A stretch of 64,000 nt of DNA from Protoeuglena noctilucae (GCA_958009085.1 OY253672.1:496001-560000); one strand, 5' to 3'; counted from the first letter of the stretch, positions 1,847 to 54,100 are shown. Numbers and translations: made by a program. Notes: generated by a model from the sequence alone, not told the origin.

Positions 1847-4800
1847 ATGGGGAGCCGGAAGATCGTCACCGACGCGGCGGCAAAGCTGCTGAGGCTGCCC
1901 TCAGCGGAGCTGTTCGCCAAGGTGGGGCGGGGATTACTCTCTTGTGTTAACTAAAGTCAAGCCACTCGGCCGTGCCCGGTATCGTCGGCGTTTAGCCGAA
2001 GAGTCAACATCGCGGTGACCCGGGCACCTTGCGAGGCCGTCGGGAGCCCGATGGCCCTTGGTTGGCTCGCCGAAGGGATGTACCATTTCAAACATCAATT
2101 AAGCATGCCCGGGATGTCGCGACTGGCGATCCTTGCTGCGGAAGCGACAGGTGGCCTCGGCTCGTGCGCCGGGGTCCTTCGCGCCGCGGTGCGGCCCGCC
2201 ATCGTCGCGGCGTGGGATTTATGGGCTGCGTACTGACGCCACTTTCCGCTGCCAACGATTGCCGGGCGTCGGCGTCCTCCGCACCGTGCATCGAAGGCTG
2301 CAAAGTGCCGAGCATGCCACCGACTGCCGGGTCGCGCCGGGGGCTCCCCGGCCCGCTGCTCGCCGTATATACCTCCGATCCGTTCTTTGCTGTCTCGCTG
2401 CTGCGGCCGTCTTCCCTAACGGCCTTTCGTGGCCGAGGGTGGGCCCTTGCGTGTTCGAGCGGCCTTTGGTTCCCCGCGCTCGCGGCACCTCTTTGCGTGC
2501 CCGCGTCCCCCGCAGTATGCGTCCACGGGGGCCAAGAAAGTCATGGAAACCCGGGACCTCGCGCGCCTGTTCGCGGACTGCGGCATCGCCGTGGCCGGGG
2601 GCGACTTCGACGACGAATTTCGCCTCGCGGATTTGAAGGGCGACGGCGTGCTGACGCTGGACGAGTTCGCCGTGTACCACTACGGGGTGCTGCGGACGCA
2701 GGCCGGCCTGCTTGCGGGGCTGGAGAGCGTCTTCAAGGCATACATCGCGTTTGGCGGCAAGCCCGACCTCTTCATGGACGCGCGGGCCCTGGTGAGCTGC
2801 GAACGAGAAAAAAGAAACGCCTTTTCGCATATTTGATGCAATACCGCGATTCCTGGAGCACCGAGGGTGCTGTTTTGCATTGCGCAAAGAGCATCGACGT
2901 TGCACGTTCCTCCCCTCTCTCTCGCGTGCACCGCAGGCGCACCTGTGCAAGGACGCGAAGTTGATCGGGGACGGTCTGCGCCTGGGAGACGTGGACGTGA
3001 TCCACTCCAAGGTCAAGACCAAGGGGGAGCGCAAGGTGTCGTTTGAGCAGTTCGTCTACGCCCTGGCGCTGGTGGCAGAAGCACGGGTGAGCGGGGGGCA
3101 TGCATGCCGCATGCAGAGGTGTCTCAGCACTGGTGACCACCGCAGTCAGTCCTGCATGCGATTCTTGTTCCCCATCTCTACCACCACCCATCGTGCTCTG
3201 CCCCACTTGCAATCCGCACCATGTATATCGATATGCCACCCCACATATCGCGCTCCGCCATTCTCCCAGAGCGAGACATTAGACCAGGTGGTGGCTTCCG
3301 TGGTCAAGTCCGGTCCCCCAAAGGGCCACGGCACCACGGAGACCGACAAAGTGCGACTGCACGACGACAAGGATGCGTACACGTGGGTGTACAAGCGGGG
3401 AGGGTCGGCGAAAGTGGACGGGCCGGCATTGGTTAACGCGGGGCAGGCGTCTATCAAGGGAAGGCAGGAGGGCGATGGGAGGGGGGCGGACCGGGGTGCG
3501 CGGGCAATGGGGGCGGGGGCGGGTGGTGATGCGGGGAGGGGGCAGGGGCTGTCGCGGCAGGGGTCTTTGGCGAGGCGGGACAGCCTGACGGAGAGCACGG
3601 GTGAGGGGAAGGGTGGGATGGGATGAGATGTGACGGAGATGGGGGATGTGAGATGGAGAGGGTGACTACAGTGGTACCGTTCACGCCAAACCCAACCCTT
3701 TTACCCCCCTCCACCCCCCCCCAGGCAGCGTGGGCGAGGAGGAGGTGGCCGCGATGCTGGAGAAGGCGTCTCTGCGCCGCGTGAACGAGGCGATTTCGAC
3801 CAAAGAGGACCTTCCCTCTCAGGGGGAGATCCGCGTGGAGCTGACGCCCACGGGGGACATGGACACGGACCTGAGGAACGTGTTTGAGGTGATTGTGTGT
3901 GGGAGTAATATAGTAATAGAGTGATATGTGGAGTGATTGGGTGATGGAGTGATGCTGGGACATGGACACGGACCTGAGGAACGTGTTTGAGGTCAGATGG
4001 AGTGTGACTGGTAGAGTAATTGAGTGATTGAGTAATGGAGTAGTTGAGTGACAGGGTGATGGTGAGACATGGACACGGACCTGCGCCACAACACACTCTC
4101 CCTCCCCACCCTCACGTTAGGCCCACAACGTCCTCAACAACCCAGCATCCCTCACACCTCTTCCCCCCCCCCCACCCCACCCCAGGCCTACAACATCTTT
4201 GACGGCGGCGACCCCGACACCATGTCCGGCCGCGCCTTCGTGAAGATCTTCCGCGATCGCAACATGGTGCAGCGCAACAAGGGCATGACCACACAGTACC
4301 TGGATTTGCTGTTTGCTAAGATGAAGCCCAAGGCACAGAAGAGGATGGGGTTCAGGGACTTCAAGGCAGCTTTGGAGAAGATCGCCACGGAGCACAAGCA
4401 GGCGAGTGGAGATGGGGTGGGGATGGGTGGGTGTGTGTGAGTGAGTGGGTGTGTGTATGGGTGTGTAAACAGGTCGCCATTCGCCCACCTCATCACCCAT
4501 CTCACATCCCATCTCTCATTCACCTCCCACCCCCCCCCAGATGGGCATGGCCGAGTTCGCCCACCTCATCATCCAGGGCGGCGGCCCCACGGCCCGGGGC
4601 ACCATCCCCGACGACGTCCGGCACCACGACGAGGCCGTGTACAGCGCCATCGGGGGACGTGCGCCCTTCGAGTCCTCACAGCGACCCGAGTCCACCTATT
4701 CCGCCAACAGCGCGGTCGGGTCCGTCACGCGCGGCAACGCGGCCGCTTCCCCATCGGTGGATAACTCCAATGTAAATATGAATGCGAGCTCCCCCGATCG

Positions 4801-5774
4801 GTCGAGCGCGGTGTCGATGCGGCGGTCGGTGGGGGGTGGGGTGGCGGCGAGTGTGGATGTGGCAGAGATGGCGGTGCGGGAGGCGGTGCCGACGGAGCAG
4901 CGGCAGTGGGGGGAGGGGCCCAAGAGGCTCTACCAGCTGTTCCAGGTAAGATGGATGGGATGAGAGGGAGTGATATGGATGTGTGAGGTGTTGGATGTGA
5001 ATGGGAGTAAAAGCAAAGTGCAGGCAGGGCAGCCGTGACGGCCCCGCATCTCCCCGCCCAACATCCCCGCTTCCCTCACCACGTCCCTGCAACCCTTTCC
5101 ATAAGATCTCATCCCCAACCCCGCGATTCGAACCCCCGACCTCCCCCGCCCCTCACCCCCAGGACTACAACCTCTTCGGCGGCCGTGGCGACGCGCTGAA
5201 CATGGACGGCCGCGGCTTTGTGAAGCTGTGCAAGGAGAAGGGGCTGCTGATCAGGCCGCTGACGGTGACCGATGCCGACATGGTGTTTGCGGCCGTGCGC
5301 AAGGCGCCCAGAAAGACCATATCGTTTAATGAGTTCTGTGTGGCCATCGCCAAGCTGGTGGAGAGGTCGCAGGTGAGGGGTGGGGTGGCAGTGGGGGTGG
5401 GAGTTGGGGTGGGAGAGGGGGTGGCGGTGAGGGTGGCAGTGGGGGTGAAGGTGGGGGTGGTGATGAGGGTGGTAGTGCGCTTCCCAGCGTGTTTGCAAAC
5501 GCGCATCGCAGTGCACCACCTGTTGTACTACACCCATGCCCGCCCCTGTGCAACCACAACTGCCAAACAGTCAAATCCCTTCCATCTCTCCCCCCACCCC
5601 CAGGGCTCCCTGCCGTCGTTTGCCAAGGTGATGCTCGCGCTTGGCAAGATGGGAGGGCCCGAGTCAACGGGCACTGTGGGTGAGCCCACCAAGCTGTATG
5701 ATAACAAGGAGATGTGGACGGGGGTGGCGCTGAGGGGCGGCCCGTCGACCGTTGGTAGCGGGAATGCCTTCTGA
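1847..5774 (+). CDS. Multidomain TPPP-like protein: N-terminal EF-hand region plus three p25-alpha domains
   Basis: EF loop DLKGDGVLTLDEF; three p25-alpha units (LCKDAKLIG..DVDVIHSKVK..LHDDKDAYT; FVKIFRD..LDLLFAKMK..VRHHDE; FVKLCKEKGLL..DADMVFAAV..KLYDNKEMWTGV..GGPSTV). Exon 1 1847-1921 splices in phase to 2516; start codon less certain. Confidence 0.85.
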
Positions 5775-6399: not shown

Positions 6400-9300
6400 T
6401 CATCTCGTCAGTTTCATCCCCGGGTAGTGCGGGTGCAGCCCCCAGTCCCACCCCACCGTCATCGCCTTAGCAGCATCGCCCAGCTTTGCCAGCAGAGAGA
6501 CGGCGGTGATGTTCTGGGCAGCCACGCGCTGCAACTGCTGCACCTCGGACAGAGTGCGGGGGCTGGGGGGGAGGGGGGAGGGTGGGGGTGTGAGGGGTGT
6601 GAGGGGTAGTGGGGCCGGTGCAAGTGACATCAGACAACTTACACAATCACTCACACATCCCATCCCGCCCTCCCAGCCCCGTCCCTGTTCTCCAAACCCC
6701 CCCCCCTCCCATCCACACCGTCACAGCTACACCTCACACCCCACCCCACACACACCACCCCCACCGCACACACCACACACAACCCCATCTTCCGCAGCCC
6801 CCACCCCCCCCACCTGGCATCCCCAAAGTCTGGGTTCTTGAATACCCCCGCCAGCCTGGGTGCCGTCAGAAACGACTCGCATGTCAGCCCCGCCATGTGT
6901 TGGCTAGTAACGCCCGTCATGTCCACTGATGCGACATACTGGTCGAAGGTGAGGGGGTCGGGTCTGGGGCTATGGGAAAGAAGGTATTATTATAATGATT
7001 ATATTTAAATATCTGTAATAGTATAATTATAGACGACAGAGGGTGCAGTTGCTGGTCGAAGGTGAGGGGGTCCGGCCTGGGGATATGGATGGGAAGGAGT
7101 GTAATATTGTAATTGCATTTGTATTTCTGTGTTAGTGTATCTATGGACAAGAGAGGGTGGAGGCCAGTGGATGGACTAGAGAACAACACATAGCAATCCA
7201 TGGTTCAAGACAATCAGACAATCCACTTCTACCATTCGCATCCCATCCCCACCCTCGCCTGCTGAGCACGTGGAATGCCGCGAATCTCTGATTGAACCAC
7301 TCCTCTTCGCCATTGAATGGGCCGGGGGGTATCGCCATGCCGTCACACACCGTCAGAAGCGCCACCAGGCGGAGCAAGCCCTGGGGGGGTTGTTGGAGAG
7401 GGGGGGTGTATGTTGTGATGGATTATGTCGTAGTAACATACAGTCATTTGATTCGAAACATCTACGGTTCATGGATGTTTGATACCCTTCTCGGCATGGC
7501 CACGCTTGCTGCCATCCGCACCCCCACTGCCACCCTCCCAGCCACCCCCACCCCTACCCCCACTGCCACCCCCCCACACCCTCACCCCAACACCCCCACT
7601 CCTACCCCTCACCTGCGCCAGGCACTTCCTGAGCTCCGTCATCGCCACCAGCCGCAGCGTCTCCGGGGCATAGGGCGCCCCCCTCGGGATTCGAACCCCC
7701 GCCAGCCGCGGCAGTGCCCGGGCGTTGTCCAATGCGCGCGTGTTCTGAAGCACCACGCCGAGGAGGAAATCCAGGTACCTGGGTGGGGATAAGGGATAAT
7801 AGGGTAGTAATAGAATAGCGCTAGTGAGGGGTGCAACACGACCCCCAGCAGGAAGTCCAGGTACCTGCAAGGGAGAACAGGGCGATGATGGTACTAGTAC
7901 TAATGAGGCAGCGACCATCTCCTCCTCCATCATCCATGCTCATCCAGCTGCAAAGCTGTGTTGCACCCTCACCCCACTCACTAGCAGCCCCGTCCCTCTC
8001 ATTCACTTTTACTCACCAACCACTCACATCACCCACTCTCCCACTCACCAGTATGTCATCCTCAGCTGTGTTGGCTTGACCAACTCAATTCCTCTCAATC
8101 ACTCTAACTCACTATTACAGCTGTTCCCACACTCACCAGTACGTCATCCTGAGCTGTGTTGGCTTGACCAATTCGACCTCCACCCCCGTGGTGACGTGAC
8201 AGGCCATCGCCATCGCACACTCCCGCTCCACCCAGCACGCGAGCATACCGTGGCTGCCGTTGCCGTCGTAGTCCCAATCCACGTTGCGGTCGCGGAGGAG
8301 GGAGAGGAAGGGGGGGCTGGGGGGGTGTGGGGGAGGTGAGTGTGGGTGAGGGAGGGAGTGGGTGGGTGTAGGTGTGGGTGCGGGAGTGAGAAGCGGGGTT
8401 CGCCATGCACAGCTCCCTTCACTGTCATGCCACGTCACTGCCCCAGCACCCCTCACCTCTGCTCTACTGTTGTTCATATCTACCACCCCTCACCTCTGCT
8501 CTGCTTCCACTGCTTTCAAATAAAGCTCCCCCCAGTCGCTGAGGTAGGCCCTGAGCTTGCGGTGGCGCCAGGTGCGCTCCAGGCACATGATCTGGACCCA
8601 CGTGGTCTGTGAGAATAGATGCGGTGGTAGTTATCATAATAACTATTCTGTACCGATACATCATCAATAGCTAAATATACACCAATCCGCACGTCATGGT
8701 CTAGCAGCCCACCCCCTCACCTCTCATGCCACATCCAACCCCACCGCATTCCCCCACCATCCCCCTCACCAGTGCCTTCTCCGCAAACTCCAAAAAATCC
8801 CCGTATGCCCGGCACTCGCTGGCCACCCTGGCAGGCACGCCCCAGTGAGCGCTGAGGAAGGCGCCATCCACACGCATGGGCCGGGGGCCGTGCTTCTTGG
8901 AGCCGAGGAGAAGGGAGCCGGCGCCTGGGGATAGGGGGAGGAGAAGGGGGGTGTGCAGTGGTAGTGCGGGCGTGTGACGGTTATGGGGTGGTGAGAGGAT
9001 GGGGGGGGTGGCGGTTGTGTGGTATGGGTGGCGCGTGCGAGGGTGTGGGGGAGGGTGAGATGATAGTATCAGTATTAAGCAGTTCTGCCAGGCAGCGTTG
9101 AGCAGCAAGCACAGCCAATACACCGCCGCATGCCACCCACCCCACCCCACCCCAACACTCACCGTCCACCCCACCCACCCACCCCACCCCACCCCACCCC
9201 ACCCCACCCCACCCCAACACTCACCGTCCACCCCGTAGCACGTGTGCAGGTGGAAGAGCGTCCTGGGCACCAGCGACGGCGATGCGTGGGCCCATTCATA

Positions 9301-11471: not shown

Positions 11472-14400
11472 ATGTGGTGGAAGAAGTTCAACTTCTACTC
11501 CGTCAGCGAGATTGCTGACCACAGCGTGCCTCAGGGCATCCTGTGCCATGCATCCGGTGCGCCGCGGTTTGTTGGGGGCCCCGGAGCCGCTCGGGCCGTA
11601 TCTCTCCACCGAGATGCCCCCGATGTGTACATATTCCTTGCAATTGTTCGTGCACTAACTCGCCAGCTGCATACAGCCGGCGGGTAGGCGCCACTCGCGG
11701 CGTTGCCCTGGGCCCCTTTTGGCCCGCGTGCCGACGGCCCCTCCGTGCACCACGCGACGTCGTGACTCGATCTTGCATCGCTAGTGCATGTCACGGTCCC
11801 TAAGCGCCGCTAGCCTTCCGGACCGCGTCGCGGGAGATGGCGAAGCGGGCCCTCTTTTCACGCTCCATGTTTCATAACCCCCGATGTCGCGCTCCGCGCC
11901 CGCAGGGGGCTCCAACATCTTCTTCGGCTGCGACGACGGCATGATCCATGTGCTGGACTCGTCGCTGAGGGTCTTCAAGGCCTTTATCGCCTACCAAAAG
12001 GGCGTCTCTGCGCTGGCAAGTGCCCGCCCGCAGCTGCGCGCTACACCCCGCGCCCGCCTCCCTACCCGCGCCCCCTTCTCTTATTACTCCATTCCCAACG
12101 TATCTCCACAGTTCCCGCTTTCCGGCGACGTGCTGGCCGCGCTAGGGTCCGATGACCCCTCGCACCCTCTCAAGGCTTGCTCCCTCAAGTGCTGGGACCT
12201 CCCCGCCATCCCCGACAACCCAATGGTCGCGCCGGCGGCCACCGTCGACCTCTTCCCTCGCCGCGGCGCGGCGCTGTCGCGGGAGCGGCTGCCCGACGCC
12301 ACTGTCACTGCTGCTGCCCTCGCCCCCACCTCCGCCCGCGCCGCGCCACCCCCCGGCCCCGCGGATGCGTCCCGGCAGCACCCGCTCGCCTCCGCGACGC
12401 TGCTGGCGGCGCTGTCGGACGGGACGGTGCGCGTGATGCAGGGGGACCTGCGCAGCAGCGCCCGTACGGTGCGCAGCACGCTGGACCTGAAACGCCAGAT
12501 CGGGACCGCAGGAAACGCCGAGGGCACTGCCCCGGAGCAGGTCGCGTCGGCGCATTCGGTCCTCGCCACCCCCCGCGGGGCCTTCCTGGTCTCGTCCTCG
12601 CACGTGCTGTTTCTGACGCTGCCAGACATGCGTGTCGCGACGCTGGACGCCCCCGGGTGCGCCCCGGGGCTCTGCTGCCTGGGCCCGGACGGGTCGTTGG
12701 TGGTGGCGCGTGACGAGGCGCTTCAGATATACACGGAAGAAGGCAGGGGCCCGTGCTTAGCGCTACCGGTCCAGAAGTCGCGCATCGCGTGGGCGGGCGA
12801 GGCACTACTGGTGTCCTGGGCTCCCCCGCCGGTGTCGGAATCCGTGGCGGGCGTCACTGCTCCGCCCCCGCAACCCTCCTGGAGCCTTCATGACCTGCGG
12901 CACAAGCTGACGGTGTGCACGGTGGAGGGGGCGGCGGCCGAGCACGCGTTCGCGATAGGGGGCGCGGGGGGTGAGGGCTTGGGGAAGGGATGGGGCGTGT
13001 GTAACAGTGTGCGGGGTGTGGGAAAGGAGTGCAATGAGCTGGTCGGTGTACTGTGTTCACGCTGCTTTCTCATTCTAACGACACGCATCGGCTCATCGTA
13101 CCACCTGCCACCCAGTCATGGCAACTGCACCCCTCATCCCCCTTTCACTCCCTCACCCCATCACCCCACCCACCCCCTCTCACCACATCTCACCCCATCT
13201 CACCCCACCCCCAACCCAGACTGCGTGGTGGTCGACGACCATCACCCCACTCACCCCATCACCCCACTCACGCACCCCCCGTCCTCTCACCTCCCCTTCC
13301 CAGACTGCGTGGTGGTTGACGGCGCCCGCCGCGCCTGGCGCGTCTGCCAGAAACCCCTCCGCGACCGGATGGCCCTGATGCTGCGCAAACACATGTACGA
13401 GGCAGCGGTGGAGCTGGCGATAGAGAGCCAAGCGTCCAATGACACACTGGCGGACATTCGGCATCAGTGGGCGTCGCATTTGTACGCCCAGGGCGAGCAT
13501 GCGTTGGCCGTGGAGCAGTTCAAGGCCACGGTCGGGCACGTGCAGCCCAGCTCGGTGATTCGGCTGTTCCTGGGGCTGGAGGAGGTGAGGGGGGGGATGG
13601 GGGGGTGAGGGGTGGGGGTGGAGGTGAGGGGGGTTGGTGGGGTGGTGGAGGAGGTGAGGGGTGTGCTGTGGGGCTGGAGGAGGTGAGGGGGGTGGGGTTG
13701 GGGTGTGTGGGGCTGAGGTGGGGTTGGAGGAGGTGAGGGGGGTTGCTGTGTTGTGCTGTGGGGTGGGGGGTAGGGTGCTGTGGTGGTGCAATTGGAGCAC
13801 TTGCACAATCAAGCTAACCATCCATGAGTTAGAACCAAACAGTGTGTTACCGAGCAATCCCTTCCCCCTAACTCCCCCCCAGATGCCCAACCTGGTCGTG
13901 TATCTGGAGCACCTGCATGACCGTGGTTTGGCGACCCGCGAGCACACCACGCTGCTCCTCAACTGCTACTCGCACCTGGGGGACGAGGGGAAGCTGGGGC
14001 AGTTCATATGCGGGGATGCGGACATGGCGAAGGTGAGAGATGGAGAGATAGTGATAGTGTTATTAATTGTGATGAGAGATGGGTGATGGTGATGGTGATC
14101 ATGATAAGAGATGGGGCAGATCATATGCGGGGATGCGGACATGGCAAAGGTGAGAGGAGAGATGGGGTTGGTGCATGTGATGACAGGGGGGTTGAACGAT
14201 TATTCTGTGGTGGCTGTCGATGAGCACCCATCATGTTATCATATACACCACTCCCATCCATCTCCCACCTCCACCTCCACCCCCAGGCCCTGTGGTGGCT
14301 GTCGATGAACACCCCCCCCGAGGTCCGCTCCGAGCCGCGCCTGGCGCACGAGTTTCATGCGGACACGGCCGTGGGTGTGCTGCGTCAGACGCGCTACTTC

Positions 14401-17400
14401 CACCACGCCCTGTTCGTGGCCAGCGCGGTGGAGAGGCACGATTTGGTATTGCAGATACTGGTGAGGGTTACAATGATATGGATGGGGTGTTGGATGGAAG
14501 TAGATGGTTGATGTTGTGGAGGAGAGGCACGACTTGGTATTGCAGATACTGGTGAGGGGGATGGATGGGGTGACTCGGGTACTATATGGATGGGGATAGA
14601 TGGTAAGATGGTTAATGATGATGAGTGGAGGGACGGTATAACTGGGTGCTGCGGGTACCATACTCTACTAACACTCTCCCCATGCCCACTCCCCCCCGCA
14701 GACCAGGGACCTCAAGCGCTGGGAGGACGCCATCCGATTCATCAAGGCACTCCCACTGGTGAGACATGGGCCATTACCATGGTAACTACCGCACGCAATG
14801 CTTTGTCAGTCACTGACGAGCAACAACCACAGACACCCACCTTGGACCATCCATCGCACCTTCATTGCTCATTGCTGACATTACACAACACCCACACTGC
14901 TACCCACACTGCTACCCACACCCTCCCACCCCTCACAACACTTCCAACATCCCTCCCTTTCTCACCCCTCCCCCCAGGACCAAGCCCTGGCAGCCGTGGC
15001 GGACTGTGGCGACATGCTCATGGACGGCGCACCCGACCAAACCACAGACATGGTGGTCAGTCTATGCATCCAGAGCCTCACTGCACAGTCACAGCCACAG
15101 TTACAATCCCATTCACAGCGACAGTCTCACCCCAGCCACCCCCACACCACCGCCGCCGCCACCGCTACCACCCACCCCTCCCAACGCCACCCCACTGACA
15201 CCACCAAGCGCCCCGCGGGCCCCGCGCCAACCCCCGCACTGCGCCCCGGCCAGCGCGCGCCCCCACGCAAGCCCACGGACTTCCTCGACCTATTCATCGG
15301 TCGCAATAGGGCGTACCCGTCGCAATGTGTCGCTTTCTGTCGGCAACTGCTGCGGCAGGGATTGGTGCGGAGGGACGCGGAGCAGACGGCGGGGCTGGTG
15401 CTGGAATTGGTGACAGAATTGCTGTTTCAATGGGCGGAGGTGCGGAGGGGGCGGGAGGAGGGGCGGGGTGGGGAGGGCGGGGTGGGTGGGGTGGTGGGGG
15501 ATGAAGTGGGGGGTGAAAGGGGGGTTGAAAGGGAGGGTGAGAGGGAGCATAAGGGAGATTATAAGGGAGACAAGGGTGGGCATGGAGTGCGGGGAAAAGG
15601 GAGGAAGAAAGAGAGGGGGAAGGGAGGGGGTGGGGGGCGCGGGGGTGATGGGGATGGGGTGGGGGAGCGGAGTAATGGGGTAGGGGGTGGGGCGAAGGGG
15701 GGTGTTAAGAAAGCGTCTGCTGGGGGTGTGGATGGGGAGGGGGAGAGGGGCGGTGGTGGGGAGGGGAGTGCGGGTGCAGAGAATGGCAAGCGCGGTGCGG
15801 GTGCAGGTGACAGTGCAAGTGCGGGTGGCAACGGGGTTGCAAGCGGCAATGGTGGTGCGGTGGATTGGGATTCAGAAGAGAGGTCGGCGAGCGATGCTGT
15901 GATGGAAGTATTGAGGGACTTCTGGCCCCCAGGGCATTCCCCCAGCTACGATCCAGAAGAGATGCTGCTGCTGTGCAGAGTCACGCACTACCTGAGGGGG
16001 CTGGTGTTCCTGGTGAGATGCTGCTGCTGTGTAGAGTTGCCACCCCCATCACCAACCCCACTGCCACCTTTACCCCCACCCCCACTCCCACCCCCACTGC
16101 CACCCCCACTGCCACCCTTATCACCACCCCCACTCCCACCCCCACTGCACCCTCACAACCACCCTTATCACCACCCCCACTGCCACCCCCACTCCCACCC
16201 CACCCCTCACCCCTCACCCATACCCCACCCCCCCTCCCCCCCAGTTCGAGCGCCAAGGCCTGCTCCGCCACGCTCTCTTGGTGGGCATAGAGACGGGCGA
16301 CCCATCGGCAGTGATTGCCATGGCCACTCGACTATGCAGCCCCAATGCGGGGGGCGACGCGGAGCTATGGGGCGACGTGTTGATGTGGCTGGCATCCCGG
16401 GGACAGTCGGCAGAGCCAGACATCCGCGCATCGCTAGCGCATGTGCAAGGGCAGGGTATGGGGAGGGGGTTGCACCCCACACGTGTGCTGGAGTGTCTGC
16501 AGAAGGGGGATGGGATACGGGTGGTGGCGGTGAAGGATTATTTGGCCAGGCATTTGAATCTGCGGTGCCGGTGCATTTTGGAGGACTGCGCGGCCACGGA
16601 GGTGAGGGGTGATGGTAGCGGTGGGGGTGATGGCAGCGGTGGGGGTGTTATTGATAGTGAGGATAATTATGATGATAAAGTGTGTGACAATGAGTATGTT
16701 TTGAATGTCAACACCCAATCTCCTCCATTAACCCCCCACCCCCCCCCTCTCAGCGTTTGTTAGACGAGGCCGCCTCCACTGCCACCCCTTACACCCTCAC
16801 CCTCACTCTCACCCCCTCACATCCATTGTCCCACTCTCACATTAACACCCTCTCTCCCCCACTCTCACATCCCCCCGCTCCCCTCCCACTCTCAGCGTCT
16901 GTTAGACGAGGCCGCCTCCACCCGCCGCCACACCCACCGCCTGCGCGTGGACCCACTCGTGTTCGACTCTGCCAGATGCGACGCCACGGGACAGCCCCTG
17001 GAGCTCCCCACCGTGCACTTCCGATGCGGCCACTCGTTCAACGCAAGTGCGCTGGGGGAAGAGGAGGAGTGCCCGTTGTGTTCGTCGCGACACAGGACAC
17101 TGGCGCAGATCCGGGCGGCCATGCGGCCCACGCCGGTGCTGGAGGAGCGGCTCGCGAGGGAGAGGGAGGGGGCGGAGGATGCGGCGGAAGGTGAGGGTTG
17201 GGGGGGTGGGGGGTGGGGGGTAGCGGCGGTGATATGGGTGGCAGTGGGGGTAGCGGTGGGGGTGGTTGTAAGGGTAGCGGTGAGGGTAGCGGTGGGGGTG
17301 GTTGGAAGGGTAGCGGTGGGGATGAAAGCGGGGTGCGGGTGTGGCAGGGCTTTCTCACATTAAATCCAATCCATCACACCCATTACAACCCTCTCCCCCC

Positions 17401-17970: not shown

Positions 17971-18357
17971 GAGATGGGGAGAGTGATGGGGTGTCGGGGG
18001 AGGGATGGGGAGATGGAGAGGGGGAGAGGTGGGAGATGGGGTAGATATGTGGTGGTGCTAATGGGATGGGATGGGAGGGGTGGGATGTGAGTAGTACGTC
18101 GTAACAGATCGTAGCCAATCGCACCCGCACGCGCCTGAGGGCCGCACTGCTCTCCGAAGCTTCAAGCGTTTCACTCACTTCGTGTGAGCCTCGCAAGCTG
18201 CTGCATCGAAGCAACGCCTTCGCTCTTCAAAGCACTGTGTCCGCGAAACCAAAGCGCAAAGTTGCGACACTCAACGCCACATCCACGCACAGCCACCTCC
18301 CATCCCACCTAACTGCACCACCCAACCCCCCCACCCCACATACCCCCCCAAACCCAT

Positions 18358-19277: not shown

Positions 19278-19499
19278 GGTGCGCCGCCGCGAGCGATCGA
19301 CGTGGCTTGGGTCGTGGAACGAGTCGATATGGCGATCCAGAACCCGCGATGGGACCTCCAGGCAGTTCTGGGAATGCCGTTTGAGGTGCTCACGATGCGG
19401 GCTTGTGCAGAGAGCGAGCCTTTCTTACCTGACAGCGCCGCGCCAGCGAAGCCCGTGAATTGAAGGAACCGCTTTTCCTTCACCCTTTCGCTCCCAACA

Positions 19500-26666: not shown

Positions 26667-27464
<798 letters not shown>

Positions 27465-41100: not shown

Positions 41101-44100
41101 GGGGCACCGCCCCTCTGTGTTTGAGTGAGGCAGAGGGTGGGTGGTGAACGTGACACGATTGATGGAACATGATATGACAAGCAAGCAAATAGTAAAAATA
41201 CAAGGCAAGGACTGCTGTCGGTCGCTCGTCACCCCTTACCACCCACACCTCACAAACCACCCCACCCCACCCCTTCCCCACCCCTCACCTGCGACCCCCC
41301 CTCCCCCCTCAGCTCCTGCTGCGCCTGCTGCTGCAGCTGCCGCCTCCGCAATTCAAACACCGGATTGCCCTCGAAATCGAACTTTGTGCCCAATCGGATC
41401 AATTCGGTCGCAGGGTCCGTCACCATCACCCGCATTTGCACCGCGAAACGCTCGCCCTTGGTCTTGCCCAGCTGCTTCTCCACCACCTGCGGGGACGGAG
41501 GGATGAATGATGGTGATAATAGCAATAATAATAACTTATATTCATAATTATCATAATTATAACAAATATAATTATAAGTAAAAAATAATTAAAATATTTA
41601 GAATAATGAAAGAAAGACCAATGCGCATACTAATGACTCCCACCCGCCCAACATCCCCTCACCTTGAGCTCCCCCACGTCAACCCCTTTCCCCACGAAGT
41701 TCCCGATGGGCTCTTTCAGGGTATACAGCGTGAATGCGGTGCGGGTGTAGGAATCCACGTAGAGCACGTCGCACGCGATGCTGGAAACGTCCTGGAACTC
41801 CACCCCCAGCACGTTTGCCAGTAACGTGACTTCGGGGTCCTGTCGCCAGATGCTACTTAACGCTTTGCCGGTCCAGATGAAGGCGGGGACCATGTCGGAA
41901 AAGACCTGGGAGAGTGAATAGTATGATGTGTATGAGTTAGTAATAGTACTAACTTCCTTAAAACACAGTGACGGTGACTGTGACATGTTCATGCGTAGCT
42001 GGTAAGCCCTCGCCTGTGCAGAGTGCCGTACCATACACCATGCATCTCAGCTGCAATCAATCAGTTACCACCACCGTTATTCATGCTTAGTACTATTTTC
42101 TCACCTGTGCCGAGTCCCGCACCATGGCCCGCGTGCCCATCCCCAGGGCGCCCTTGACGCTGCCCGGCTGCGGGGGAGGGAACAAGGACATTAACATGAA
42201 TCTATGCGAATGGGATTCGTTTAGTACTCATTCGGTAATGTATATAACAATCCCCTATTACTCCCTACTAACATCGCCACTCACGCCGACCGCCTGTGCC
42301 TCGAAGAACTGCCAGCGATATTTTGAGGATAGCTCATCACATATTCCTCAATTACTATTCCCAATATCTAATATACCCATTACTCACGTCGACCGCCTGT
42401 GCCTCGAAGAACTGCGGGTCCCCCGGGGTGGCCTCATCGACGTCGAACCGCCATCGCAGGAACACCAGCCCACGCTTGCGCACGCGGCCTTCCAAAGCAG
42501 CGGGGGGGAGCTTGCTCAGGGCGCAGCGGAAGGAGTGACGGTCGGTGTCCCTGCAGGGGGTTGCCATAGCACTGATTAGTGTGATCTGTGCTGGCTCAGG
42601 GCGCAGCGGAAGGAGTGGCGGTCGGTGTCCCTGCAGTGGGAGGGGGAGGGGAGGGTGATGGCTATGGTTACATGTGGTATGGGTCATTGAGTGGCAGTCT
42701 GTAGCCCAGCCTTCATCCACACATGCACCACCCACTGCCCTCACCTGTACCCCAGCCACCTGGAGATGTACCGTGCAGGTGAGGGCGACAGCATGGCCAT
42801 GACCTCCATCTCTGGGGGGGATGTCAACTGCACGAGAAGTGGATGGGGTGCGAATGGGTGAGGTGCGGCACGTGGTTTGGTCAGGGTAAGGGTGGGTGTT
42901 GTTTTACAAGGCACCACCTGTCCCCCCACATCCGCAACCCACACGCACGCTCGTTCATCACAGCCCTCTAGTACGAACCACTCACATCCGTCTTCAGGTC
43001 GCTGAGCGTGATCTTCAAGTGGTAGTGGACCCCAGGGACCATGGAAGACAACGGTACCTCCACTTTAGATATCGGCGCTTGTGGGGTGTTGGCGTCGAAT
43101 AGACCCAGCATGACGCGCTCTTGGGGAACCATGCTGTCTGGGACTGTGAGGGATAGGACCTCGTCCCATATGGGGTCGTTGCCGGACACCTGGTCTGCGG
43201 GCAGCGGCAGTGGCAGTGGCAGTGGCAGTGGCAGTGGATGGGAGCACTCACGCACCAACAATCGATTGTAAATGGAGGGGGTTGCTATGCCAGTATGATC
43301 ACAGTGGTGTATGGATTGTCCACCATATGCGCTCGCTCACTCGTCACCACGGCCTTCTGCCCCTGCCCCACCGCCTGCACCGTCAGGGCACTGCGAGCGG
43401 GGTAACGAGACAGAGATATAAGGCATAAGCACGACCACAAGACGCGCTACGATCGATTGCCCCCACCCCCGCACCGCCCCTCCATGCTTCAGCCACAGTC
43501 CATAACAACCAACACCCAAACCCTCAATAAAACGCAAACGTCACCTGACGAACGTGGTGGGCTTGCCCCGCAGCCCCGTCTTGTCGGACGTGTTCAAATT
43601 CGGCAGACGGCTGACCCGCATGATCAACAGCGTGACGGTGGCCGTGGTGGAGGGCTGCACCAGTTTGTTGGCGTTGAATCCGAGGTTCTTGAGCAATCGA
43701 TCTTCCGCCTGTGCCAACACCTTGCTGTCCGCGCGTGACACCACGCGGACTTGCTCCGTGGCCGGAGGGGTCGGGCGCTCCGGGTGCAGCTGCGGAAGGA
43801 AGGCAAATGAAATGTCAGGAATGCTTTTATCGGCTCGATTCGGGCACTTGGTGAGGGTGTTGTCCTGTTGCAGCTGAGATTACACGTTGCCCGCCACCCT
43901 CGCAAGCGCACCCTTAGTAGCCCCAGCCCTTTCCCCAGCCTAAGCGCACCTTGGTGGGCGGCTCGTCCTGCGTCTGCGTCTCTGCGGGCCCCCGCCCCTC
44001 CGGCCGCGCCTCCGTCGCCAGCTCCCGCACATCCACGCCGCCTCCCTTGGCCACCGCCACCAGCTGCCTGTGCAGCACGGTCCGCGCCGCGCTGACCTCC

Positions 44101-48600: not shown

Positions 48601-51600
48601 CACCTAAGCCACCCGACCGTCTGCCGGACCAGACCCAACAAAAGCCCCTCGCCGCCCTCGCCCTGCAGAGCTCTCTCGGTCCTCGTAGCCCCCCGCACCA
48701 GCCGCGCCACCTCGTTGGCCTCCACGCACGCCCGCACGAACCCCAGGCTGGTGCACATGCGCCCCGCGGAAGCAAAGTCTCCCGCAGCTAGTGCGTGGCT
48801 CACAGCGTGCGCTGCTGCATACCTACCCAGTTTTGACAAACACGGTTGCTCCTGCGCGTTTACTCGCACATTAGAGGCGTTGATATCCAAGTCGATTGCC
48901 TTTTTAACCCATGTGTCCGCATGCAGCTTGTGGCCCGTTGTGACGTCCGCGTGCCAGGGACCCGCCTGGCCTTCCGTCAGCCAATCCAGCACGGACCTGC
49001 GATGACTCAAGGCAATCTTGTGTTATAACTATCAATGATGCATGCATATGGTATGGTTACAAATACACCTTCGTAACAAACTGTGGCATTCATAGCAAGC
49101 TTGCATTCCTCGCAATCGCATCCACCGCAACTGCATCCATCATCGCACCAACACTGCCAGTGACATAACATCTCGCTCACTTGTGGAAGGGCCGCACTCG
49201 GCCGTCCGACCCCACCGGGAAGAGGCTGCCCATGGCATCGAGAACGTGCTGCACAAAGGAGCCCTTCCGTGCTGCGTCGCTGCCCACGATCTCCGCCAGT
49301 CCTGACACCAGCAGCGGTTCTGCTGCCACAGCTAACGCGGGCAGCAGCCGCGACCGGACCAGGCGCAGGTTCGCCCTGCCCAGGTGCCCGAACTGCCTGG
49401 GGTTGGGGTGGGGTGGGGTGGGGTAGTGAGCGGGTGAGTGGGGTTGCGGGTGATGGTGATTGCGAGGGGGGTGGCGTTGGCGTGGGTGGCAATGGCATGG
49501 CTGGGAAGGGAAGGGCGACGGTCGAGGTTGGGCCAGCCACAAGCCATTCATAAAGATAATACAAAGAGGGATAAATAACACACCACAGCAAAACGCGCAC
49601 GTCACCCCCTCCACTCACACCCCCCACCCCCACTAACCTGTCCATGTAAGCGGCGTAGAGCGCCCTGTGTCCCTCCGGCAGCTCCTCTACCCGCATATCT
49701 CCGACCTGCGCCCCCTTGGCCTGCCCCGCCTCGCGTTGCACCATCGCCACCAACGCCCCCACATACGCAAACACCCCCGCGCTCTTGGACGCGATCGCTG
49801 ACGTCAGGTCGTGTCTGTCAGAATCGCAGAGGCCCTCGGGGCGCAGGCTACCACGCACGAAGGCCCCCACGTCAGCCTGGTTGTTGGCACCCTCGGGGTC
49901 CAAAGCACAAACGCGTGTCGTGTGATCATGGGATGATGACGATAATTGCAATGAGCGGACGATGTAGTCCTCGGGACGGGAGGTGACCAGGAGCCTGCGT
50001 GGGATGTTGAGAGCGTCGCGTCCTTAGCCGTCATGTCTGCATTGCTGCGCTGGTGTACGCTATGCAATGCGTGGCGGTCGTTGCGTGGGAAGTATGTTGA
50101 GGGAACATCTACTGGTGCAGGGGACATGGGCTTGATCCACACCACGCCACACACCGCACCACATCCACACCACGCCACCCCCCGCACCTCTCATTCACAC
50201 CCCCTGCACGCCACCCCACCCCACCCCACCCCACCACACCTGACCCAGGATGGCAGCTCGGCCAGAGGCCCCTTGACGAGGTGCAGGAGGCCATTGGACG
50301 CCGCTCCCGTCCCCGCCTCATCCAATGCATCGATCAGGATGACCATGGGTGGGCCGTCCCAAGACACGCCCGACAGAGGACCCACGATCAGGCTGGGGAG
50401 AGGAGGGGGGAGGGGAGGTGGCGGAGAGTCACTCTGTATATTGTCGGAACACATAAGATTTTGACAACTGCATAGTGCATACCAAGCAATGGTGAGACTG
50501 ATGAAGCAGCCCAATCGACTCAACAATTTGTTGGGTTTCGTCATCGCTGTCACTAATGAGGGACGCTTCTCACACCGCCATTCGAACATCACAACCCCAT
50601 ACCTTCGTTTTATATCGCTCTCGTCTTATATCGCTCTCGTCACCTTTGGCACCACTGGGCAGCGGGCGCTTGCTTGTCCAGAGCCCCCCACGCGTCCCAC
50701 ACTGCTCGGGCGACCCCAGGCACCTCATTGGCCACCTGGCAAGCCAGGGACTTGACGATTTCCACAGGATCGCTGCGCCGGGCATCCACGAATCGGCGGA
50801 AGTGCCCAGCCAGGAGTCGGCCGGTGCGGCTGAGCTCGACCGCCACGTGCGCGGCAAAGGCGGTCTTGCCCATGCCTACAAGGGGGACACGGTGGGAGGG
50901 CAGTGGTCTACTCTATGTTGCATTCTATGTCGTTGCCTGCGCGGGGGGTCTTTTCTGTGTCGCAGATGAGTGAGGTGCAATGCCATGCAGCGCAAGCATG
51001 GTATGCGGCGGTGCGGGCATGGAGCGTACAACCACACAAAGAATGTGGCAGCAGTGATGCGACTGCAAAGCACCTGGCAGTGCGAGCAGGAGCAGCACGT
51101 TCTGGCTCGCCCCCTCTCCGCCCTCCGCCCATGCCAAAACCTCTCGTAGCAACCACGCGCGTGTGCCTGCCTGCGATGGGCGACGAGGCACGCATGTTGA
51201 TGAGGTCCTATGGTTGTGGATGCGAAGCCTTTGTCCTTCATATAAACACACATTCCACGTTTTACACGTAGCACCCCCACACACTCCCAATACCACCCTC
51301 ACACCAGGTAGCTCGCCGCTTGCCGATCGGCTCGCTTACCTTCCCTCACGCGTGCAAGTCACCCCGTCCCCGGTCTCACCAGGAAGCTCGCCTCCTTGGC
51401 CACCGCCTCGTCCAGAAACTCCAACGGCTGCAGCGCCTCCCGCAGCGCAGCCATCGTCTCATCCACCCCACCCGCACCCGCCGCACCCCCGCTGCCCATA
51501 CCCACTGCTGTCCCCCCCACCCCTGCCCCAGCACTGCCCACCCCTGGCCCCATGCCACCCACCCCAAACCCCATGCCACCCACTCCCACACCCACTCCCA

Positions 51601-54100
51601 CCCCCTCTACTTCGCTGTGCACGAGGGCCACCAGGTCTTCGAATCGGATGTCCCCCCACGCCACGCCCCTCCGCCGCTCCACGCGCCTCGCCAAGGCAAA
51701 CACCTGTGCCACCTGCAGCGTCCCGGACGGCGCCAGGCGGGCCCTGAGCCCACTCTCCGCAAAGACCTCGAGTGGTGGGGACTCAATGGTCGCACGATAC
51801 CACTCCGCCGGCGACGTCAGCAGCGCCGGGCGGCACTCGACGTGGATAAGCACATCGATGAATTCGGACCATGGGTACTCCAATAGCACGTTCCCGAGCC
51901 CGTCTGCCTCGTCGGCCCACAGCCGCAGCACGGAGGGCGGCAAGCGCTGCAGTTCCCTCGGCATAGGGTCGAGCACGTGGCGCAATAACAGGTGCACGGC
52001 TTGGCCCAGGTCCTGCATCAGCGCCGCCAGCACCTGCTCCCCCGGCGCTAAGAGGCCGAAGAGCGCGTCGATGCGAGCGGGGTCAGACAACATTGCGCGT
52101 AGGTGGTGGGGCGGGACGTCCTGCAGCCGCGTCGCGCCCGCCTCGTGCGCCAGTTTCGCTGCCAGATCCGCGCTCGAGAAGAGTCCGCCGGAGTCGATGG
52201 CCGCGCGGATGTCGTCCAGGCCACGCAGCGTCTGGACCTGCAATGCAGGGTAGGGCACTTCGCACTTGATGAATGATGAATGTGTCACATGGCGTGGGTG
52301 GGTATCATGTATGCAGAGACAGCTAGCTCTGCAGGCATGCATGCGCGCGTGTGTGAAATTTCCCCATAGTGACCTCCGCCCTCGCCTGCATCGCCGTCGC
52401 CAGCGTGGACACCTGCGGCAGGGAAACGAACGACGTTCCTTAATATTTCACGATTCCATTTAATAAGCACAACTTGCATGATTATCCACCCGAATGCCTC
52501 GTCTCGCCTGCGTCTTGATCTTCTCCGCAAGCTCTTTGAGGCCGTCGACGTCCATGGACGCCTTCAAGAAGCGCCCCAGCCACGTGCGGCCCTCGACCTC
52601 GCCCACCAGCGTCGCCGCCTCCTCCAAAAGATCTGCGAGAACATATCGTGTATTGTCGGCATGGAACGAAGCTCACTGTGCACTGCAGTGCAGGTGCGAC
52701 TCGGCATGACAATCGGACGGTGCTTGTACGTCATGCAAGCATGACACAGACCAGCACTGCCACGACTCGCATCTGTCCAACATCACCCACTTGTGATCTC
52801 CAGCAGCACTTTGTTGCTCCTCCGCACGACAGCATGGGCCTCCACCACGACCTCCGCCACAGCGACCACCACGGCTCGGAAGTCCTGCAACGCCGCCTTC
52901 ACTGCCACCGCCTGCGTGCATGGCAGTGATAAGGGATGCTCTTACCCACCTCACCCATCCCCGCTCTTACCCACCTGCCCTCACCCACATCGCCCATCCC
53001 TGCCCTCACCTCAGCAATGCCTTGCACCCACCTACCAGCTGCCCTCACCTCGGCCACTCCCGCCCTCACCCACCTCCCTCACCCCATCCCTCACCTCGGC
53101 AATGCCCTGCACCCACCAGCTGCCCTCACCTCGGCCACTCCTGCCCTCACACGCTGCCCTCACCTCAGCAATGCCTTGCACGACCCGGGACGCCACCTCC
53201 GCGAGAGGCCCCACCAACGGCGCCGACGCGAGCACCTCGAGTGCCTGCATGCCACCCCGGCTCAGGATGCGCAAGATGTCGCCTGTCACCCTGTTCTCCT
53301 GCAGGCGCAGACGAGCAATGCGGTGTGACGGCTCCCGTGAAAGCTGGTGAGGTCATTATGAGGCGTGGAGGAGATGCCGGGCGTCAGACACTCAGGACAT
53401 GTCGCATATAGACAGGGTGGATGAGCTCACGCATGTTAACGCTGTTGCAAGTCACACCTGAAGGAAGGTCAGCACCGGTCCGGCCAGCGGTTCCACGACA
53501 CCCAAGAGCTTCTGCGCCTCCGCCACGCGCTCCTGAGCCGCGGAGGACAGCTCCGACACCGCATCGAGCGCTTTATCGGTGGCATTGGCTGGCGGTGGGT
53601 CCGAAATCGCCGTGACTGGGTCGGGAGCGGGGGCGACCTTGCTGCGGGCGTGTCGATAGCGCTTGGATTCCGCAGGGTCTCCGTTCGCAACCGCCGGGTC
53701 TCTTGGAACTACTGCGACGTCATCACGGGACGCGTGGGCGGGAGGGACCGTGGATAGCGCAGATTTCCCCTCGCTGGCCATGGCCATGCACAGAGCGTCC
53801 ACAGCGCAGGCGTCGCGGAGCCCGGAATCCCGCAATCGCTGTCGGAGAACTCCCGAAGCGTGATACTCTCGCAACAGACCGATGGTGAGGCCACCCGTCG
53901 CGAGAGCGCGGAGCACGCGGGCGTCATGTGCAAGGCGCTGGTTCTGCGCACAGAGGCGGAAGCGAACCGTATTTGCAACTTGAGGAGAGAGAGGACAAAC
54001 GCGCGAAGCTCTCCGAGCTCTGTAAACTCTGTATCCTATGTCTTACCCAGAGAATGCAATATATCTCGGGGTCCACGGGAGTGCTCGCGCCACACCCCAT
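45648..54100 (-). CDS. NLR-like STAND protein: MGCGAS acylation motif, MLKL-NTD-like helical bundle, NACHT NTPase, WD40 repeats
   Basis: GTRAWLL pre-motif, Walker A ALP|GMGKT, GHF, IVKSLACQV, Walker B MVILIDALDE, LLVTSRPE, SAGVFAYV, PFHKSVLDWL; multiple GH..WD-type repeats at 45700-48290. Confidence 0.9.
52975..53181. repeat. Tandem array of degenerate copies of an exon-end/donor unit (GCCCTCACCTC[AG]GC..) in an intron of the NLR-like gene
   Basis: gccctcacctcagcaatgcc and gccctcacctcggccactcc units recur at ~53002, 53041, 53088, 53122, 53156. Confidence 0.85.

Follow-up and report, generated by a model that had tools for sequence, protein, structure and literature searches.

Why do so many introns in one stretch of the Protoeuglena noctilucae genome hold, close to an exon, a second copy of that exon's end and its splice site? 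The window, that is, the whole stretch of 64,000 nt analysed here as one strand (GCA_958009085.1 OY253672.1:496001-560000), had been described in an initial annotation as containing about 30 such introns in nine genes. We scanned 110 introns, taken from our own approximate gene models of the window in which GC donors are under-called, with 48-nt junction probes; an echo was scored where the top score, of at least 14, fell in the probe's own intron rather than in the other 109, and chance is expected to supply about one case per probe type (donor, acceptor) and about two in total. The donor probe was positive in 20 introns and the acceptor probe in 7, with both positive in 2. Including intron 14461-14701, which was mis-called in the model run and was added to the scan count by hand after separate verification (homologue alignment included), copies of the adjacent exon end occur in 26 of 110 introns, on both strands and in some 9-10 genes; the earlier figure was close, if slightly high. 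Three of these introns (8317-8493, 17563-17871 and 20821-21046) are weak cases with only 9-12 exon nt. All 17 pair sets listed earlier (11 donor, 6 acceptor) were recovered where they had been placed or within a few bases. The pattern is real and unusually dense, taking in about a quarter of the predicted introns. The individual events are given below, with d the copy-to-copy distance in nt; the authentic copy was assigned by homology in VPS11 and in one DEAH-helicase intron, and elsewhere by reading frame in the approximate models.

3854-4083, plus strand: donor array of an EF-hand/p25-alpha gene; authentic exon end and GT 3854-3890, echo 3957-3993 (37/37), partial third copy 4066-4083 (18/18).
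4480-4575, plus strand: acceptor-side echo without AG; intronic 4480-4499 against exon 4556-4575 (19/20, d = 76).
6939-7088, minus strand: acceptor echo of an unnamed gene; authentic acceptor and exon start 6939-6975, echo 7052-7088 (34/37, d = 113).
7751-7867, minus strand: acceptor echo of intron 7779-8136; authentic 7751-7781, echo 7837-7867 (26/31, d = 86).
8042-8171, minus strand: donor echo of the same intron, 7779-8136; authentic exon end and GTGAGTG 8130-8171, echo 8042-8083 (40/42, d = 88).
13215-13321, plus strand: acceptor echo of VPS11 intron 12971-13303; echo 13215-13237, authentic 13299-13321 (22/23, d = 84), junction confirmed by homologue alignment.
13571-13745, plus strand: donor array of VPS11 intron 13585-13882; authentic 13571-13594, echoes 13646-13661, 13669-13692 (24/24) and 13719-13742 (23/24), TRF period 80.
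13995-14156, plus strand: donor echo of VPS11 intron 14033-14286; 13995-14039 against 14112-14156 (43/45, d = 117).
14205-14314, plus strand: acceptor-side echo of the same VPS11 intron, 14033-14286, covering exon +4 to +28; echo 14205-14229, exon copy 14290-14314 (24/25, d = 85), no AG before the echo.
14430-14558, plus strand: donor echo of VPS11 intron 14461-14701; 14430-14467 against 14521-14558 (37/38, d = 91).
15959-16037, plus strand: exon-internal 15959-15981 recurring at intron +3 to +25, 16015-16037 (22/23, d = 56); the unit spans donor 16012/16013.
16739-16921, plus strand: acceptor echo of VPS11 intron 16602-16895; echo 16739-16779, authentic 16881-16921 (38/41, d = 142).
23321-23441, minus strand: DEAH-helicase donor echo; authentic about 23408-23441, echo 23321-23354 (30/34, d = 87).
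23906-24115, minus strand: three-copy donor array of DEAH-helicase intron 23700-24055; authentic unit 24051-24115, older echo 23979-24043 (82% over 65 nt), further echo 23906-23938 (31/33), TRF period 72.
24608-24722, minus strand: donor echo of DEAH-helicase intron 24478-24696; authentic 24692-24722, echo 24608-24638 (31/31, d = 84).
29199-29319, plus strand: donor echo; 29199-29245 against 29273-29319 (42/47, d = 74).
29637-29777, plus strand: donor echo; about 29637-29685 against 29730-29777 (46/49, d = 92).
30383-30511, plus strand: donor echo; 30383-30431 against 30463-30511 (49/49, d = 80).
32170-32248, plus strand: donor echo; 32170-32197 against 32221-32248 (25/28, d = 51).
36510-36634, plus strand: donor echo of a DUF1997 gene; 36510-36553 against 36591-36634 (86% over 44 nt, d = 81).
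42009-42125, minus strand: donor echo with GC instead of GT in the echo; authentic about 42100-42125, echo 42009-42034 (22/26, d = 91).
42279-42415, minus strand: donor echo; authentic 42382-42415, echo 42279-42312 (33/34, d = 103).
42510-42640, minus strand: acceptor echo; authentic 42510-42560, echo 42590-42640 (48/51, d = 80); the pyrimidine tract is stronger at the upstream decoy.
51299-51410, minus strand: older donor echo; authentic about 51374-51410, echo 51299-51334 (29/37, d = 75).
52977-53181, minus strand: minisatellite-like donor array of period about 81, the first unit spanning the exon end; authentic 53154-53181, identical echo 53000-53027 (28/28, d = 154), a diverged copy between; TRF 52977-53169, period 81, 2.3 copies.

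Homology supports the junctions of two genes. The echo in VPS11 intron 14461-14701 gives a secondary protein match of its own, and the exons run on from q510 to q512, which establishes the upstream site; for DEAH-helicase intron 23700-24055 the residues on either side are numbered contiguously on PDB chain 22tu_DH (657-677, then 679-771), which confirms the junction. Across the main events the two copies lie 51-154 nt apart, with a single weak case at 37. Repeat identity, mostly over exon-derived sequence, runs from 100% (49/49, 37/37, 31/31, 28/28) down to 78-82% (29/37; 65 nt at 82%), an age spectrum that fits repeated neutral events, and arrays of 3-4 copies whose first unit lies across the exon boundary occur at 13571-13745, 23906-24115 and 52977-53181. 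Introns with a donor echo are longer by about one unit (median 271 nt against 210 nt), in line with the earlier proposal that recurrent copying makes introns grow. The accompanying proposal, that it seeds decoy splice sites, also holds: GT is intact in 19 of 21 donor echoes (one has GC and one lacks the junction) and AG in 5 of 7 acceptor echoes, the copies at 4480-4499 and 14205-14229 consisting of exon sequence only, without AG.

Such intact sites raise the possibility that selection keeps the echoes: additional U1-binding or decoy sites might help to define introns that are short and GC-rich, or the echoes might serve in alternative or recursive splicing. The donor echoes usually retain a full GTGAG consensus, their exon-derived part is better conserved than the spacer, and 11 of 20 end in AG|GT, as a recursive splice site would. 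AG|GT is, however, merely the general exon-end consensus; older echoes decay (82%, 78%), copy spacing is divisible by three no more often than expected at random (7 of 19 cases; intron 3895-4185 was taken as 103 nt rather than 105, the model donor being 6 nt off), and folding revealed no special structure (z = -2.1 and -0.5). We regard selective maintenance as distinctly improbable.

The copies are direct and derive only from the exon end that adjoins the intron. Exact direct repeats of at least 16 nt at 40-200 nt spacing number 55 (binned) in the window, against 0.16 on average and never more than 1 in 50 dinucleotide-preserving shuffles of 100-nt blocks. Inverted copies were all but absent (donor probe 0 of 110, acceptor probe 1 of 110), and far exon ends used as probes found an intronic copy in 0 of 88 and 0 of 86 cases. 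The comparison suggested in the initial annotation, intron self-alignment with exon-internal probes as control, was run on the window and set the 26 of 110 introns with echoes against 0 of 86 and 0 of 84 for the control probes. Complex 16-mers behave likewise, a local copy being present for 43 of 1740 exon-terminal and 37 of 958 junction-spanning words and for none of 4596 from exon interiors or 2327 from intergenic DNA. Complex intronic 16-mers of non-exon origin are themselves rarely copied (about 3 clusters among 7446), and duplication is therefore not uniform across non-coding DNA.

This distribution also bears on whether the second copies are assembly artefacts, namely haplotype or gap-closing duplications in repeat-rich introns. 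The assembly does contain a 200-N gap at 22809-23008, the introns are of low complexity, and a search for independent contigs found none. Artefactual copies would, however, have had to spare exons and intergenic DNA; the copies differ by 0-22%, with both substitutions and indels, and form arrays of 3-4, which a two-haplotype artefact would not. Moreover, 0.95-0.99 of the sampled 31-mers of 12801-22800 recur in read-built contigs from four runs of the same organism, and 0.82-0.90 in two marine metagenome runs of a different study; with the joins of the 7 events in that interval estimated at about 2% of the words, we infer that the duplicated arrangement is probably genuine. Misassembly is, on this evidence, highly improbable.

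The sequence between the copies is what separates patch-like insertion from the copying of whole units. According to the initial annotation, spacers in the cases checked there are no copies of the flanking sequence, which our alignments contradict: when each spacer was compared with the whole remaining intron (104-534 nt), its best local match lay at most 12 nt off head-to-tail register in 13 of 17 testable events, so that whole units were copied, not patches. The match was out of register or negligible in the other 4 (events 13995, 14430, 36510 and 13299). Against 109 other introns, the spacer's own flank ranked 0-2 in 10 of 20 events and had no clear advantage in 9-10 of 20; spacer-flank alignments are collinear and share idiosyncratic motifs. 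The spacer 30432-30462, said to resemble neither side, aligns past the second copy with 24 matches, 4 mismatches and 4 gap nt (rank 2 of 109). In the array at 3854-4083, spacer 1 aligns with the sequence past copy 2 over 49 matches, 14 mismatches and 8 gap nt, and the spacer tail with copy 2 matches the spacer tail with copy 3 at 83% over 48 nt; the AT-rich but complex spacer of 6939-7088 scores 28 against its flank, above all 108 other introns, at a register offset of 4; and at 29199-29319 the unit end is conserved as well (29253-29273 against 29338-29358, 95%).

Spacers are nonetheless far less similar to their flanks (0.80 of aligned columns, or 0.70 with gaps, pooled over 11 events) than the junction-containing repeats are to each other (371/392 = 0.946), and perfect runs of 37 and 49 nt adjoin spacers differing at 14-22% of aligned positions. 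The contrast is reduced, though perhaps not removed, by three factors: one copy is frozen (exonic), boundaries are defined by identity, and spacers are prone to slippage. It would suit a junction-focused, error-prone repair or template switching (polymerase-theta-type end joining, breaks at R-loops or G4, or RNA-templated repair at the intron 5' end) that copies the exon end and splice site and leaves an imperfect spacer from birth. Consistent with such a process, in most donor events the match gives way within 2-12 nt of the splice site, and donor-echo introns are G-rich at their 5' end (median G 0.47 against 0.34). Set against it, besides the in-register spacers, are the near-absence of the inverted copies expected of the polymerase-theta-like template switching earlier proposed, the ordinary decay of the exon-derived part in older events, and several events in AT-rich or GAGTGAT-type contexts without G runs. 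G4-associated repair, also proposed, fares no better, canonical G4 motifs in the first 200 nt being found in 7 of 21 donor-echo introns and 14 of 89 others (Fisher p = 0.12). Junction-focused repair is accordingly unlikely, if the least so of the alternatives considered here.

An ordinary process is the most likely origin of the echoes. They are probably the survivors of short head-to-tail duplications across the junction, the intronic part having decayed faster than the exon-derived part. The duplicated unit would be some 50-150 nt long, with one end 14-60 nt inside the exon and the other inside the adjacent intron; if the exon-proximal splice site (the upstream donor or downstream acceptor) stays in use in vivo, as we presume, the mRNA would be unchanged and the extra exon end and splice signal absorbed into a longer intron. 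Duplications confined to exons would be purged by selection, those retained being presumably neutral, whereas those confined to introns are hard to see because most of the intron sequence is made up of degenerate repeats of short period, rich in G/T towards the donor and in C towards the acceptor (TRF returned 109 rows in the window, mostly of 5-36-nt period and largely intronic). Donor echoes go together with such repeat-rich ends, occurring in 15 of 38 introns with G+T of at least 0.65 in the first 80 nt and in 6 of 72 others (p = 2e-4; median G+T 0.70 against 0.57). The exon-derived part, as the sole complex sequence in the unit, would stay recognisable while slippage and indels scramble the repeat-rich rest. 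The molecular route may have been replication slippage, unequal exchange or flap-type duplication in repeat-rich DNA.

With introns of about 150-300 nt and units of about 90 nt, a large share of tolerated duplications must cross a junction; from the observed intron and unit lengths, 38-56% are expected to include at least 14 exon nt. The initial annotation had named full tandem duplications, equally frequent away from junctions, as the finding that would speak against its reading, and this is largely what the window holds: 21 introns have internal duplications (one row caused by an N run left out), 9 of them without a junction echo. At 26 of 35 affected introns, the observed junction share somewhat exceeds what geometry predicts, as junction-focused repair would have it, although detection favours the junction type. 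Also counting against simple tandem duplication, less of the unit is exonic than the one half that uniform placement would give, the exonic part averaging about one third and never exceeding about 60 nt. Geometry and survivorship explain most of the junction bias.

Among known systems, polymerase-theta end joining leaves templated insertions and G4 induces rearrangements, both yielding local flank copies near structure-prone, G-rich DNA, typically as short patches, direct or inverted. The present events are instead whole head-to-tail units, direct (inverted in 1 of 220 tests) and mostly without a canonical G4. The introner mechanism was reportedly set out by Huff et al. in 2016, and echoes could conceivably have arisen where a mobile intron element (introner or MITE) inserted beside a junction and left a long target-site duplication. 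The introns here do share dispersed motifs, such as the 12-mer CCACCCCCACTG (31 matches against 1.5 expected), and introners are known from marine algae (cited in PMC9481584). They supply marine picoeukaryotes with intron sequence and have duplicated target sequence beside the splice sites. Introners, however, form dispersed families of similar elements with short, fixed target-site duplications, whereas here the length duplicated ranges over 14-60 nt and spacers are copies of the local intron, not of a common element; there was no sign of terminal inverted repeats or of a shared spacer family, and arrays of 3-4 units are no insertion signature. An insertional origin is therefore exceedingly improbable.

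Tandem duplication across junctions has closer parallels. In one model of intron gain, an exon segment containing AGGT is duplicated in tandem or segmentally (PMC3265369, PMC4974935, PMC2891723); splice signals are likewise duplicated and the mRNA stays unchanged, the extra copy being spliced out, but the whole new intron is built from exon sequence, whereas here a pre-existing intron is only lengthened by a unit that includes intron sequence. The human FGG exon 8-intron 8 duplication (PMC9052919) is similarly a small tandem duplication including the exon end and donor site; it is reported to cause disease through loss of protein (afibrinogenaemia), whereas the genes hit here look intact and presumably tolerate the events. 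The nearest known parallel is the intron-7 minisatellite of human F7, where head-to-tail units also begin in the exon end, so that in both the authentic 5' splice site is trailed by identical intronic pseudo-sites. Those of F7 are functional but silent, as the most upstream site is selected; the present decoys may or may not be silent. Our units are also longer (51-154 nt) and mostly present in two copies, their intronic part is strongly diverged, and acceptor junctions are hit too. Above all, F7 is one locus with several near-perfect copies of a 37-bp unit, whereas here the pattern takes in about a quarter of the introns predicted across 64 kb.

Second copies of an exon end and its splice site within the adjoining intron ('echoes') are a real, dense and useful feature of the window. 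All 17 pair sets named in the initial annotation were found and are visible directly in the sequence, and the window holds 55 binned exact direct repeats of at least 16 nt at a spacing of 40–200 nt; 50 dinucleotide-preserving block shuffles averaged 0.16 and yielded at most 1. Sampled 31-mers of 12801–22800 were present at a fraction of 0.95–0.99 in contigs from the reads of runs X1–X4 (one cultured organism), 0.82–0.90 in marine metagenomes and 0.20–0.40 in metatranscriptomes; a protein scan and an exact 49-nt scan of metagenome contigs found no independent contigs. These k-mer fractions bear only indirectly on whether the second copies could be an assembly artefact. The window (64% G+C) reads as eukaryotic nuclear DNA with numerous short GT..AG introns, and carries the following genes, assigned by Pfam:

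1–1600, plus strand, acetyl-CoA synthetase
2400–5774, plus strand, EF-hand/p25-alpha gene
11884–17970, plus strand, VPS11
in the window, Y-family polymerase, DEAH helicase, ubiquitin-L40, a DUF1997 gene and nicastrin

Introns were taken from a purpose-written exon-chain predictor, whose approximate models comprise 110 introns. It set the donor of the 3854 event 6 nt away from its true position, preferred a GC at 14436 to the GT donor at 14461, and overlooked a probable GC donor near 7258. The frame at about 7255–7262 (minus strand) points to a GC-AG intron with the donor CAG/GCGAGGG; since the genome may use GC donors commonly and the predictor is biased towards GT, the intron count is approximate. 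GC donors and the 64% G+C are reminiscent of Emiliania-type haptophytes (PMC4028052) and may hint at such an affinity, and Pelagomonas, for which 0.45 introns per gene are reported (PMC9481584), was set aside as a source since the genes here are rich in introns. An assembly gap of exactly 200 N occupies 22809–23008, inside the predicted DEAH-helicase intron 22768–23419, which leaves the exon downstream of donor 23420 uncertain.

Echoes were scanned for with a 48-nt probe (40 exon nt and 8 intron nt), and one was called when the score in the probe's own intron exceeded the best among the other 109 introns and reached at least 14. This yielded 20 donor and 7 acceptor echoes, with two introns bearing both, and once intron 14461–14701 is added, 26 of the 110 introns carry an echo, three of them weak. 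The main events are all direct, head to tail, at copy distances of 51–154 nt, and the duplicated exon end varies from 14 to 60 nt. In the two introns with both donor and acceptor echoes, 7779–8136 and 14033–14286, the interior therefore resembles a miniature of both exon ends around a short spacer.

Hits of control probes in the echo scan
Exon-internal probe, upstream exon, 60–108 nt from the junction: 0/86
Exon-internal probe, downstream exon, 60–108 nt from the junction: 0/84
Far end of the upstream exon: 0/88
Far end of the downstream exon: 0/86
Donor probe against the reverse-complemented intron: 0/110
Acceptor probe against the reverse-complemented intron: 1/110

Complex 16-mers with a copy (at most one mismatch) 40–200 nt away
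Exon interior: 0/4596
Intergenic: 0/2327
Exon-terminal: 43/1740
Junction-spanning: 37/958
Intronic, the matches being almost entirely the echo copies themselves: 119/7446

The exon-proximal copy is the authentic junction wherever protein comparison bears on it. A 972-aa homologue of VPS11 (P0003, 40% identity) is collinear with the VPS11 exons; its residue numbering runs continuously across introns 13585–13882, 14033–14286, 14461–14701 and 16602–16895, and the exon ends at introns 12971–13303 and 16013–16244 are consistent with it. At the level of sequence comparison, the exon-proximal copy is thus confirmed as the real junction in all six VPS11 introns compared with the homologue. The sole database protein matching the VPS11 exon at 100% identity is P0002, the window's own unspliced 574-aa ORF, and a search with the 576-aa ORF returned one distant fungal protein. 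For the DEAH helicase, the exons flanking intron 23700–24055 match residues 657–677 and 679–771 of PDB chain 22tu_DH, the residue absent between them being a split codon, and this alignment confirms the first unit as the holder of the real exon end and splice site. In the other genes, the reading frame of the approximate models suggests that the first or last unit is the real junction.

The echo sites often preserve splice signals. GT is retained in 19 of 21 donor echoes, usually as GTGAG, with one GC and one lacking the junction, and AG is retained in five of seven acceptor echoes. At 42590–42640 (minus strand), the pyrimidine tract of the upstream decoy acceptor is longer and better than that of the authentic site. 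Between the two lies a 29-nt spacer with a branch-point-like CTAAT some 25 nt ahead of the authentic AG, which would permit choice of the downstream acceptor.

The initial annotation had argued for an unusual mechanism on the premise that the spacers between copies are not copies of either flank, and this premise fails: the spacers align to the flank, mostly in register. Against mononucleotide shuffles, they match the flank predicted by whole-unit tandem duplication and not the exonic side. When matching end zones of the 109 other introns serve as the null, the spacer's own flank ranks 0–2 for 10 of the 20 events and 4 for another, and in the remaining nine it is indistinguishable from other introns' end zones. 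In a search against the entire remaining intron, 13 of 17 spacers have a best match that departs from head-to-tail register by no more than 12 nt, far above chance placement because these remaining introns are 104–534 nt long; outside this set, the spacer-flank match is weak or undetectable. Idiosyncratic motifs recur in matching order in the alignments, arrays of three and four copies are present, and the periods given by TRF are 72, 80 and 81. The whole unit, spacer included, is repeated, as in a boundary-spanning tandem duplication.

With 11 events pooled, 371 of 392 positions of the junction-containing repeat are identical, compared with a spacer-to-flank identity of 0.80 over aligned columns and 0.70 with gaps. 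Three considerations reduce this contrast: the exonic copy of the repeat is under constraint; the repeat boundaries had themselves been set by identity; and slippage and misalignment make the spacers, which are degenerate short-period repeats, look more divergent than they are. The exon-derived copy also decays in older events, to 82% over 65 nt at 23979–24043, 29/37 at 51299–51334 and 30/34 at 23321–23354. These considerations may not fully account for perfect runs of 37 and 49 nt next to spacers that differ at 14–22% of aligned positions, and a degree of error-prone synthesis when the copies first arose is therefore conceivable.

The echoes could instead be the product of a process tied to splice junctions, distinct from generic duplication, that directs intron growth and seeds decoy sites. 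Transcription- or splicing-coupled breaks at intron 5' ends, for example, would be followed by error-prone and possibly RNA-templated repair, in which the exon end and 5' splice site would be recopied faithfully and the repeat-rich spacer scrambled at birth. Such a process would explain why identity drops abruptly where the exon ends, why exon sequence makes up a low share of the unit and why junction-type events are in excess, and we nonetheless consider it quite improbable. Duplication is probably not junction-specific: once one row arising from the N run is set aside, 21 introns hold internal duplications that outscore all other introns, and nine of these 21 carry no junction echo. If tolerated duplications were placed uniformly, given the observed intron and unit lengths, 38–56% of them would include at least 14 exon nt; the observed junction-type share is 26 of 35 affected introns, and detection is clearly biased towards events with complex exon sequence. 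Uniform duplication over all non-coding DNA is rejected because complex intronic and intergenic 16-mers are almost never copied locally. Duplication is concentrated at repeat-rich intron ends, donor echoes occurring in 15 of 38 introns with a G+T content of at least 0.65 in their first 80 nt versus 6 of 72 others.

Echoes are unevenly spread over the genes, and the window seems to contain two kinds of intron, compact and repeat-filled. Those of the acetyl-CoA synthetase gene are compact, without low-complexity sequence and without echoes (0/6); the helicase has echoes in 3/6; and those of VPS11 (6/10) have a G/T-rich 5' zone, a C-rich 3' zone and many short-period repeats. Short tandem arrays of the 12-mer CCACCCCCACTG, G-rich on the opposite strand, lie within introns of many genes (at 5389–5448, 7518–7565, 16052–16194, 17242–17301, 21640–21651, 29415–29438 and 39601–39684, among others). 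Its 31 matches at no more than one mismatch, where 1.5 are expected, suggest a micro- or minisatellite motif dispersed among introns. At 15959–16037, a 23-nt exon-internal segment recurs at the very start of VPS11 intron 16013–16244; the duplicated copy opens with the GAG of the GTGAG donor, and the donor consensus thus lies partly within duplicated sequence.

The mechanism is probably ordinary, with slippage, unequal exchange or flap-type duplication (as in the rad27/FEN1 literature) within repeat-rich DNA as the putative route. The more elaborate causes proposed in the initial annotation, polymerase-theta-like template switching and G4- or R-loop-associated repair, are unsupported as general explanations. 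A templated patch made by polymerase theta or at a G4, with filler unrelated to the flank, is argued against by spacers that are in-register copies and by the counts of inverted copies (0/110 and 1/110). A canonical G4 motif within the first 200 nt of the intron occurs in 7 of 21 donor-echo introns versus 14 of 89 others (p = 0.12), which does not support an association, and several echo events sit in AT-rich or GAGTGAT-type sequence. RNA folding of two echo introns is unremarkable relative to shuffles (z = −2.1 and −0.5) and gives no ground for proposing a stem between the splice sites. Insertion of an introner or MITE from a dispersed family of similar inserts, with a fixed-length target-site duplication, is disfavoured by the variable duplicated length (14–60 nt) and by spacers that are closer to their own flank than to other introns. 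Creation of an intron from a duplicated exon segment, which would end in a copy of the upstream exon end, does not fit either: beyond each echo the intron continues with sequence that is unique or rich in repeats, and it has an acceptor of its own.

The echo pattern is best described as a known kind of duplication, probably of ordinary origin, at an unusually high frequency. Provided that the organism itself carries these copies, about one-quarter of the introns here have a perfect or near-perfect decoy splice site 50–150 nt away, often sharing 20–45 nt of identical exon context with the true site. For intron evolution, this would represent a concrete and frequent route to longer introns and alternative sites. 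In RNA-seq mapping, a read ending within the duplicated exon segment fits the echo equally well, and gene predictors may pick the wrong copy, as happened in our models at 3894 and 14436.

The literature searched, in which subscription journals were thinly covered, held single-gene cases only and no genome-scale account of junction-spanning duplications in an alga. Among these cases, a junction duplication in FGG is reported to cause disease (PMC9052919). The creation of whole new introns by tandem or segmental duplication (PMC3265369 and PMC4974935) is related to, yet distinct from, the echoes of the window. The closest parallel is the 37-bp minisatellite of intron 7 of human F7, whose first unit spans the exon boundary, so that the authentic donor is followed by identical pseudo-sites that are functional but silent, the upstream donor being selected through 5'-to-3' scanning (PMC1557585). 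The window would thus offer a natural, multi-locus counterpart of the F7 duplicated 5' splice site experiment, bearing on how the spliceosome chooses the exon-proximal site in a GC-rich, short-intron genome. As in F7, the copies in the window are direct and local, the whole unit is repeated, and the first or last unit holds the junction.
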